Position numbers: made by a program | In this document: piece by piece, positions 3,001 to 6,000 of the stretch | How the letters are laid out: the number at the start of each line of letters is the position of its first letter | How positions within the stretch are numbered: position 1 is the stretch's first letter | From: a virus | Lineage: Duplodnaviria > Heunggongvirae > Uroviricota > Caudoviricetes | Direction: 5' to 3' (one strand) | Length of the DNA stretch: 7,680 nucleotides | IMG/VR virus record: IMGVR_UViG_2671180366_000007 | Span: 1 to 7,680 of that record

Positions 3001-6000
3001 ATACCTCACTGAACCGGCAGTATGCGGAGCTGCTGAGTGAATATAAACATCTGCGGCGGTATTTTGGCGTGACGGTGCAGGTGCCGTATACCGATGTGTG
3101 GACGCATAAACCGGTGCAGTTCTATCCCGGGAAACATCCGTGCGAAAAACCGGCAGAAATGCTGCAGCAGATAATCAGCGCAAGCAGTCGTCCGGGTGAC
3201 CTGGTTGCAGATTTTTTTATGGGCTCAGGTTCAACGGTAAAAGCTGCACTGGCGCTCGGGCGTCGTGCGATTGGCGTTGAACTGGAGACCGGACGTTTTG
3301 AGCAGACAGTCAGGGAAGTTCAGGATTTAATCGTTTGAAACGGATGAGATTGCAGAATTAATTACGCACCATTATTATTCTGCTCCCGGCCCTTTAGCTC
3401 AGTGGTGAGAGCGAGCGACTCATAATCGCCAGGTCGCTGGTTCAAATCCAGCAAGGGCCACCATCACAAACCGTCATTAGCTTATCAGGAAGAGCAGACG
3501 ACACGATAACAGGGTTGTTGGTGCGGGGGCGGGTCCCCGATGGCGGTCCATTATCGGTATTCAGCGTTGTTAGCTCAGCCGGACAGAGCAATTGCCTTCT
3601 AAGCAATCGGTCACTGGTTCGAATCCAGTACAGCGCGCTATATTCATTCTTCCAGATTCCTTCCGGCAGAGCCTTATACTGAAATATACCTGGCTCAGGA
3701 TATTGTTGAAAATATTTTATGTTTGTCAAAAATAAAAGTTCTGTTAAGTATTGATTGAGTGTTTGTTATACGGTCTAATGGTTTTTTCAGCATTAAATAT
3801 TTATCATTCATATGGTGTGGGTAGAGTGAATATTGATGAGGCGTCGGGGTGTTTCATCCTTAGGCAGCGTATTGATATAGTCAATGCAGGACGAGCAAAG
3901 GCCTTCAGCCGTTTGACAGTTTTGTTCTGTACTCCTGATCGTCTTTCGGGAAGAGACGTTATTATTCTGAATAGTGATGCTATACAGAGGGTTTGCGATG
4001 AGTTCATGGTTGCTAATTCAGAATTATTTGCTCTTGTTCAGGAGTACAACAGAATAGCCAGGACCTGTGGTATGGATGAACTTCGGATTACTCATCTGGG
4101 GTAGATACATATCTGGATTATCACTTGTTACGGTAAAAAGTGATTGCTTACTGTTTTTGTGAGTGGCATTGCAGCAGCCGGATAATGTCAGTGCTGGCTG
4201 ACGGTGTGCTGGTGGCGGGTGTGGTGGTTGTTGCTTTCCCGTTGCTGAAAAAGAAAACGCCAGACTGTTAGCCGGGTATCAGTTAGCGGGAGAAATTTTT
4301 AAATACTTCACAATTCAGGCGGTTGACTGTTGTCTGGTTTGCGGGGAGTTTGTTAAAAGAAACTGGCATGGTGAATCCCCCTGTGCGGAGGGGCAATCAG
4401 CGAGTAGGTATATGGGATAATCGCGGATTCAGGTGCTGGTACTGAATTCACCGGGAGGCACCCGGCACCATGCAATGGCACATAGCGCCACTCTCCAGCC
4501 CCTCTCCGGAGGGGCTGTTTATATTGATTTTGTCAGATGTGAGTAAACTCCTTATGGACTTTGTTGTTTTAGTCCATAAGGACATATTTGCAGAGTGCAA
4601 CGGTTATTAAAGCATTCATTCAATACGTTATCTGTATTTGTAGGACATTCCTGGCTGTTTTTGATTAAATTCCAGAATGTTTTATTGAATGGTACTACGT
4701 TGTAAATGGTTACAGGTAGCACTTTGTTATTGAGCATGATACCTGTGTGAGTCAGTGTAAATATACTTTCAGGAGGTAAGAAAGCATCCGATTGATACCA
4801 GATTATTAATTTTATTTTACTCCATATGACTGAAAAAGATATTCCGCATGATGGCTGGATAACTGTATCAATCACAATCCACTTCATTTAGCTTCCTTGT
4901 TTATGCCTTGCTGGTGATGTTCTGAAAAGTATAAATGATATTTTTGAATATAAACCATAGAGCAGAATTATTTTTCTGATGTTGTTTATTGTTTATTTAA
5001 ATGCAGGGTGGTTTATATCTCGTCTTGTAGTTTATCCATGCATATCTGCTTGATGATCAGGTTTCTATTTAAGGTATGGTTTTGTGTTTTTTCTGTGTTA
5101 CATGTCTGGTATTTTAAAGAATTATTTTTCAGATGGTGGAAAGAACCATGGCATTTAAACACTATGATGTTGTCAGGGCGGCGCCGCCGTCAGATCTTGC
5201 GGAAAAGCTGACACATAAACTGAAAGAGGGCTGGCAGCCGTTTGGTAGTCCGGTGGCCATAACCCCTTATACCCTGATGCAGGCGATTGCAGCAGAAGGT
5301 GATGTGGTGGTCAGTGGTGCAACTGAGCCCGAGTGATACTACGTCATCGTACTGGCCCGGCATTCCAGGCCATAAAAGACAGTCTGGCAGTGGGACTAAA
5401 TGTACTGACGCTGACGGATATTACCAAAAATGCAACGTATGGCGTTGAGATAGAAAGTCTGGTGCTGGAGATAAATGCACCGGCATCATCATAAAAAGTG
5501 AGCCAGTCAAATGGAAGGTATCGTTAAACTCACCGGTAGTGTCAGTGGGTCGTCTGAGATGCCTGCATGAGTTATCAGAGCCATCAGTACTTAACTGGTG
5601 GCTTTTTTTATTGTTGTCAGCTTCCGGATAACGGGAGACGGGGTATGTACCAGATGGAAAAAATCACAACAGGTGTGTCATACACCACGTCAGCGGTGGG
5701 AACGGGCTACTGGTTACTGCAGCTGCTGGACAAAGTCTCTCCGTCCCAGTGGGTGGCAATCGGTGTGCTGGGGAGTCTGCTGTTTGGCCTGCTGACGTAT
5801 CTGACTAACCTGTATTTCAAAATCAGAGAGGACCGTCGTAAGGCGGCGCGGGGAGAGTAAAGCGATGAAGAAAAAATACGAACTGGTTGTTAAAGGGATA
5901 AATAATTACCCGGATAAGATTACTGTTACTGTGGCACTGGAAATTGGTGGGTATCCGTCACTGTTGTTGCCAGATGTGGCGATTAGTCTTGACCGTACTG

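Follow-up and report, generated by a model that had tools for sequence, protein, structure and literature searches.

We analysed a 7,680-nt stretch of DNA, positions 1 to 7,680 of the Caudoviricetes record IMGVR_UViG_2671180366_000007 in IMG/VR, which is referred to here at its full length as the window. It comes from a lambdoid prophage, of which it spans the late-regulatory and lysis region, and it carries a cassette of transfer RNA (tRNA) genes that sits downstream of Q and a terminator, next to an element resembling the pT promoter of phage 933W, and upstream of the lysis genes (Table 1). An AT-rich cargo block follows the cassette, and its first open reading frame (ORF) had been placed at 3751-4104. 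Positions 3340-5560 are 100% identical to the defective prophage beside ompW in Escherichia coli strain 300709 (locus L001; compared loci carry L numbers), and identity to that prophage over positions 1-6116 is 98.4%. The first-pass annotation had proposed that the two tRNAs of the cassette match the rare-codon demand of the adjacent ORF and are kept for its expression, as seen for stx genes. Its observation was partly confirmed in the present analysis and its interpretation partly supported.

Both tRNA genes were called by ARAGORN and recovered by Rfam, with 72.5 bits for the tRNA with anticodon CAT and 68 bits for tRNA-Arg(TCT), and an Rfam search over 3388-4104 returned the two tRNAs only and no further RNA element. 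The CAT tRNA is named tRNA-Ile by the Prokaryotic Genome Annotation Pipeline (PGAP) in the matching RefSeq record. It is identical at 76/76 positions to ileZ of 933W, whose record reads "codon recognized: AUA", and at 68/76 positions to ileX of E. coli K-12, the pairs C4-G69 and C5-G68 being common to both. We take these two pairs to be TilS determinants. Judged from its sequence, the CAT tRNA is of tRNA-Ile2 rather than Met identity, and its anticodon is presumably read as lysidine-AU. The second tRNA, tRNA-Arg(UCU), decodes AGA and, by wobble, AGG, and shows three differences from 933W argO over 77 nt, among them a 3′ CTA for CCA. This 3′ end (3638-3640) is CTA in the window and in L001, and CCA in mEp460, L016, and 933W; an argO that ends in CTA would need trimming and CCA addition for maturation. 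The specificities that had been proposed for the two tRNAs, AUA and AGA/AGG, are therefore upheld by the ileZ identity, the argO type, and the ARAGORN, Rfam, and PGAP calls.

Between the two tRNAs, the 100-nt "spacer" turned out to be argN in decayed form: the acceptor stem and D arm are kept, and the anticodon arm and T loop have been replaced. This relic was not called by ARAGORN or Rfam, and its fold z-score is -0.58. The same relic is present in L015, and the intact middle tRNA, argN (Arg-UCG), is absent in the window, where only the decayed copy is found. The two-tRNA form of the cassette is common, occurring in L015 and mEp460, and has also been described in Stx2e phages (PMC7366253). 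With an argN relic and a CTA-ended argO, the cassette is poorly kept at this locus, and the sequence evidence for its decay in a defective prophage is a modest useful result in itself.

The codon counts behind the proposed match are exact. The ORF at 3751-4104 holds 3 AGA, 3 AGG, and 3 ATA in 117 codons (7.7%), and these codons are indeed among the rarest in a host sample of 8,803 codons (AGG 0.45, AGA 1.36, and ATA 3.07 per 1000). What had been built on the counts, namely that they argue for translation, did not hold. The ORF has a GC content of 41%, and base shuffles give an expectation of 6.0 ± 2.2 AGA/AGG/ATA codons, with a probability of 0.14 for nine or more; the off-frames of the same stretch hold eight and five. 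Among its arginine codons, 6/11 are AGR (45% expected from composition), and 3/11 isoleucine codons are ATA (33% expected). Because the count matches both composition and the off-frames, it is no evidence of translation.

Enrichment of these codons over the prophage backbone is real but modest. Their raw frequency is 0.49% in the host and 2.39% in the backbone (179 codons), and the 7.7% of the ORF exceeds both the pooled backbone (Fisher P = 0.002) and the backbone genes with GC ≤ 0.45 (3.3%; P = 0.03). The comparison across the prophage that the first-pass annotation had suggested thus gave a divided answer: the pooled backbone is three times lower, but single backbone genes reach the level of the ORF, including those for DUF3950 (9.1%), xis (7.3%), and DUF4014 (6.9%), with DUF7167 at 6.7%. 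The ratio of observed to composition-expected counts follows a gradient, from 0.10 in host flank genes through 0.38 in the backbone and 0.75 in an IraM-like cargo gene to 1.57 in ORF92, the conserved 92-codon part of the ORF, which contains eight rare codons (8.7%).

ORF92 was delimited by comparing the DNA of three diverged lineages (the window, L008, and L013) over a gapless 92-codon frame that starts at GTG 3826. Pairwise nucleotide identity is 68-72%, with zero in-frame stops; differences at third positions are about twice those at other positions, and the ratio of nonsynonymous to synonymous change (dN/dS) is about 0.26 in all three pairs. Other frames over the gene show a ratio near 1, stops, or both, the exception being the antisense mirror frame, with ratios of 0.23-0.39. 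An antisense ORF at 3804-4007 was rejected, since its low dN/dS mirrors the sense frame and two stops fall within 3826-4101 in the window and L008 (none in L013). The 25 codons upstream of the GTG are interrupted by stops in L008, L009, and L013. Starts at TTG 3751, where the first-pass annotation had begun the ORF, and at ATG 3778, as given by gene callers and phrog_2873, were rejected on account of these stops and because distant homologues begin at the position of GTG 3826. The limits 3751-4104 are thus probably wrong, and the conserved gene is probably the 92-codon frame at 3826-4104.

Protein searches retrieved ORF92 homologues at 57-65% identity, and an exhaustive HMMER scan added distant members at 32-44% identity, all of 91-95 amino acids and all starting at the aligned position. 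The protein matches phrog_2873 (no assigned function) with E = 3.5e-70. It is the dN/dS ratio, the frame kept open in diverged lineages, and these distant homologues, not the rare codons, that mark ORF92 on comparative grounds as a real protein-coding gene. A 76%-identical homologue in L013 is annotated by PGAP as a 92-amino-acid protein behind an AGGAG site; the window-type gene is left unannotated by PGAP in 27/27 sampled near-identical copies and likewise in the matching RefSeq record. The AlphaFold model is confident (pLDDT, the predicted local confidence score, 89.6) and has the form of a two-helix hairpin with a short beta turn, for which Foldseek searches against PDB and BFVD returned generic coiled-coil matches only (best E = 0.18 and 0.10, respectively). 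A prefoldin-like topology was noticed and is not claimed, and ORF92 has no significant match in Pfam, NCBIfam, or PADLOC. Diverged homologues lie directly downstream of an AraC-type regulator and distant ones have a GerE-type regulator or a fimbrial operon under PapB control in their neighbourhood (L002, L007-L009, L014, L021, and L022); these contexts hint at a role as a regulatory partner.

The cassette is far more widespread than the gene behind it. Among 5,426 complete E. coli genomes, the cassette was found at 7,595 places in 3,060 genomes (56%), often in several copies each, and the ORF, all lineages counted, at 1,485 places in 1,313 genomes. As the latter is about a quarter of the genomes and the gene is usually left unannotated, the corrected gene model is a useful by-product of this work. 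The ORF is missing from at least 80% of cassette places, so that the cassette predicts the ORF in at most 20% of cases and co-occurrence is not two-way. In L015 the cassette is followed by TerB, DUF3927, and a SASA esterase, in L014 by TolA-like and AraC-like genes, and in 933W by stx2. The AGA/AGG/ATA content of such neighbours spans 0%-7.2% (TerB 0.7%, the esterase 1.4-2.1%, and stxB2 0%). Loci L008 and L013 hold ORF92 homologues but no tRNA gene, and in L018, which has a distant homologue, the sole tRNA gene of the locus, downstream of Q, is tRNA-Thr(TGT). No rare-codon position is common to the three ORF92 lineages. The ORF at no more than 1,485 of about 7,600 cassette places, the codon-poor neighbours, the tRNA-less loci, and the absence of a conserved rare codon together speak against the proposal that the tRNAs are kept for this cargo.

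The codons read by the cassette stand out across the whole phage genome rather than in one gene. We compared the host codon sample with mEp460, a complete phage that has the same tRNA-ORF92-DUF3927 block, and found that its most over-represented codons genome-wide are AGG (7.7-fold), AGA (4.3-fold), and ATA (3.0-fold), then CGG (2.4-fold). For argN, which encodes the tRNA-Arg(UCG) isoacceptor, the 933W record carries the remark "CGH; CGG?". ORF92 accounts for 8/250 of the AGA/AGG/ATA codons of mEp460. The parallel with stx that had been drawn is sound in part: the tRNAs are of the same ileZ/argO type, and stxA2 (7.2%, vs. 2.8% for the whole 933W phage) comes close to the 7.7% of the ORF, but stxB2 has none of these codons, and the non-adjacent gene stk reaches 8.6%.

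The borders of the cassette were located by alignment. The promoter-like element just ahead of ileZ corresponds to the 933W feature "pT; putative tRNA promoter" (933W 21082-21110) and is kept in all six phage backgrounds aligned, homology between which begins at about this point. It was missed by a consensus promoter scan, its -35 hexamer being too weak, and a terminator directly precedes it in mEp460, L015, and L016. Although window positions 3349-4474 form one block (tRNAs, ORF92, and DUF3927) that is 98.8% identical to mEp460, homology to prophages with other cargo ends near 3675, about 37 bp past argO; this boundary is defined by matches in O157-type prophages that cover query positions 1-288, i.e., 3388-3675. 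As the shared block ends there, cassette and cargo belong to different mosaic units. The former looks self-contained, and we infer that it may be served both by its own putative promoter and by read-through from the Q-dependent late transcript. Upstream of ORF92, a promoter-like site was found at 3706-3733, in a region where the number of such sites is not above that in shuffles, and the scan of the ORF92 region found no terminator ahead of that of the STnc100-family small RNA (sRNA) at 4496-4517; an own promoter or terminator for ORF92 is therefore not demonstrable.

The codon match is thus probably generic rather than cargo-specific, a generic cassette standing in front of a separate AT-rich moron. 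In this explanation, ileZ-[argN relic]-argO is a widespread accessory cassette of lambdoid prophages, carried downstream of Q and the tR′-like terminator with a conserved promoter-like element, and its tRNAs read AUA and AGA/AGG, the codons whose genome-wide use in lambdoid phages most exceeds that of E. coli. Its probable role is to supplement scarce host tRNAs in general, whichever phage gene or horizontally acquired gene calls for them. The AT-rich moron block begins at the boundary behind argO, with ORF92 as its first gene. ORF92 appears not to avoid AGA/AGG/ATA, which host genes avoid about tenfold and the backbone about 2.6-fold. With its rare codons at the composition level, the match between tRNAs and cargo is probably a by-product of AT-rich, poorly host-adapted DNA meeting a cassette tuned to the generic codon gap between phage and host. 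ORF92 may profit from the tRNAs, yet it is probably not the reason for the presence of the cassette. Identities, distributions, codon statistics, and coding constraint are observations; we infer that the tRNAs would be expressed, matured, and able to raise translation.

Several results weigh against this explanation. Seen from the side of the ORF, the linkage is tight: among about 1,184 genomes with a copy of window-type ORF92 at ≥95% identity, 1,146 (about 97%) carry ORF and cassette as a contiguous 717-bp stretch. Rare codons are also denser in the window-type allele than anywhere else in the family (8.7%, vs. 5.4%, 3.3%, and 1.1-6.4% in other lineages), as would be expected if tRNAs encoded in cis had relaxed selection. 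Linkage by descent explains the association equally well; identity among the window-type copies is 95% or more, and for most of them 99% or more, and they form one lineage, so that the association is inseparable from co-inheritance. General compensation is itself challenged by lambda, whose record has no tRNA genes and in which AGA, AGG, and ATA together make up 2.36% of codons, compared with 1.97% in mEp460 (1.08% vs. 1.06% in head and tail genes). Given this equal usage without tRNA genes, the general compensation model is weak for lambdoid phages, and codon adaptation has been reported to be no different between lambdoid phages with and without tRNA genes (PMC4631060).

The lambda comparison and the lack of a codon-adaptation effect would also fit if the tRNA genes were hitchhikers or relics, either captured chromosome pieces or sequence conserved as an anchor for recombination when modules are exchanged; they would then have little or no current translational role and be in decay here. 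Of the three cassette tRNAs, one survives as a relic, argO has no encoded CCA, the prophage of strain 300709 is defective (terminase fusion; head and tail genes absent), mosaic boundaries lie at the cassette edges, near 3349 and 3675, and tRNA genes have been treated as markers of captured regions (PMC7366253). We nevertheless consider this explanation unlikely, because the ileZ sequence does not vary among 933W, mEp460, L002, and the window although the flanks have diverged, the cassette is kept in more than half of the complete genomes, often in multiple copies, and the anticodons fit exactly the three most over-represented phage codons. This pattern suggests that ileZ and argO, at least, are in general under purifying selection.

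It is also possible, though quite unlikely, that the cassette, through its own putative promoter, is active in the lysogen and serves as a helper for lysogenic conversion. Travelling AT-rich morons such as ORF92, DUF3927, and the IraM-like gene could then drift to neutral codon usage and yet be expressed, and the 1.1-kb tRNA-ORF92-DUF3927 block would be co-selected.

That the tRNAs are retained specifically for the adjacent cargo, be it the ORF at 3751-4104 or the IraM-like gene, as has been proposed for stx, we regard as very unlikely. The threefold excess of the ORF over the backbone, the similar pattern of stxA2 in 933W, and the linkage and codon density of the window-type allele speak for it. 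Opposed to these stand the composition and off-frame controls, the many cassettes without the ORF or with codon-poor neighbours, the homologues in tRNA-less loci, and non-adjacent genes as rich or richer in these codons, such as stk and the DUF3950 gene. The IraM-like gene lies on the opposite strand; as had been stated, it uses ATA (6/111 codons), but it contains zero AGA and zero AGG, and iraM of K-12 is even richer in ATA, with 8 in 107 codons. We assume that K-12 lacks the phage ileZ and that iraM is expressed there.

Phage tRNAs may also act as counter-defence spares that stand in for host tRNAs when anticodon nucleases, colicins, or other immunity directed at tRNAs have cleaved or depleted these, and the phage tRNA-Arg(UCU), which differs from host argU through most stems with the anticodon loop kept, is compatible with escape from a structure-specific nuclease; this role is nonetheless most improbable here, as ileZ is very near host ileX and shares its anticodon arm exactly, a PADLOC search of the cargo proteins gave no defence-related hit, supply accounts better for the choice of rare-codon tRNAs, and no nuclease with tRNA-Ile2 and tRNA-Arg(UCU) as its targets is known to us in such a setting.

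Table 1. Features of the window, in order of position.
Feature	Position	Strand	Basis or remark
DUF968, RusA, then Q	Q at 895-1716		Upstream end of gene order
Terminator-like hairpin (tR′-like)	1799-1814		
orf65 and DNA methyltransferase (N6/N4)	2289-3338		
Promoter-like element, TTGCAG-17 nt-TATTAT	3350-3378	+	Just upstream of first tRNA
tRNA-Ile2 (anticodon CAT), ileZ	3388-3463	+	ARAGORN, Rfam, PGAP
Decayed argN copy (tRNA-Arg UCG)	3471-3550	+	Alignment to argN of 933W and L016
tRNA-Arg (anticodon TCT), argO type	3564-3640, including 3′ end	+	ARAGORN 3564-3638
AT-rich leader of cargo block	3676-3825	+	Holds 25 non-conserved codons, 3751-3825
ORF92, GTG start, 92 codons	3826-4104	+	Conserved frame, phrog_2873
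DUF3927 small protein, 43 amino acids	4140-4271	+	PF13064, E = 1.7e-27
STnc100-family sRNA	4337-4526	+	Rfam 132 bits vs. gathering score 47; terminator 4496-4517
IraM-like anti-adaptor gene (homologue of the RssB anti-adaptor IraM)	4552-4887	-	NF007393, 162 bits vs. cut-off 121
DUF1737 ORF	5133-5336		N-terminal stub of nanS-p-type SASA esterase gene
Holin, then YdfR, lysozyme	Holin from about 5645		Downstream end of gene order

Outside the cassette and ORF92, the block of orf65 and the methyltransferase (1823-3348) is an insertion relative to mEp460, placed between the tR′-like terminator and the pT/tRNA cassette. GC content is low (0.31-0.47, vs. about 0.52) across the block made up of ORF92, DUF3927, and the IraM-like gene, and the IraM-like gene, with 34% GC, is convergent with the late operon. 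A relation between STnc100 and PasD is described in a 2026 preprint (10.64898/2026.05.13.724894). At the position of the DUF1737 stub, the SASA esterase gene is intact in prophages H17, L014, and L015. In L001, positions 26107-30330 hold a single 1,407-codon coding sequence, annotated as terminase endonuclease subunit, that runs into a tail fibre assembly gene.

Were the pairing specific, expressed cargo genes could be found by way of phage tRNAs. On the present data they cannot: the same cassette fronts many genes, rich or poor in AGA/AGG/ATA, and the density found here tracks AT content. The composition expectation and the off-frame counts provide a worked control for any claim that tRNA genes match codon demand.

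Codon supply is the standard reading of phage tRNAs (PMC7946995; PMC3636060), and the cassette itself has a long record. The first report of an ileX-like tRNA beside stx2 appears in the reference list of PMC3636060 (Schmidt et al. 1997, FEMS Microbiol Lett 149:39); three tRNAs were annotated in 933W in 1999 (GenBank AF125520), and tool-independent surveys have found that tRNA sets between q and stx vary with stx subtype (PMC7366253). Our finding re-describes this known cassette, and the neighbour-specific extension of the standard idea is not supported by the data. The closest likeness is to ileZ-argN-argO of 933W (GenBank AF125520), with ileZ 100% identical, argO nearly so, the same post-Q place, the pT-like element kept, and AT-rich cargo downstream with about 7% AGA, AGG, and ATA (7.2% in stxA2 and 7.7% in the window ORF). 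Different from 933W, the window has argN only as a relic and an argO that ends in CTA, not CCA; orf65 and the DNA methyltransferase intervene between the tR′-like terminator and the cassette, and the cargo consists of ORF92, DUF3927, the STnc100 sRNA, and the IraM-like gene instead of stx and nanS-p.

The low-GC block of ORF92, DUF3927, and the IraM-like gene, situated between the late regulatory region and the lysis genes, resembles the lambdoid morons, which are extra AT-rich genes inserted between backbone genes, and in related prophages it is replaced by other genes. It differs from them in that its own promoter and terminator could not be demonstrated for ORF92. The codon-compensation model of Bailly-Bechet, Vergassola and Rocha (2007), as summarised in PMC7946995, is matched in that the tRNAs correspond to the codons used more by the phage than by the host, AGG, AGA, and ATA. 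The difference is that tRNA-less lambdoid phages use the same codons (lambda; PMC4631060), and with usage equal in the absence of tRNA genes, there is no sign that codon usage and tRNA content have co-evolved in the lambdoid group. Finally, phages SfI, Sf6, ST64T, PS3, and 21 carry post-Q tRNA genes in the same slot, between the late antiterminator and the lysis genes, with other specificities, Asn-GUU and Thr-UGU (PMC3636060), and in L018 the slot is occupied by tRNA-Thr(TGT).

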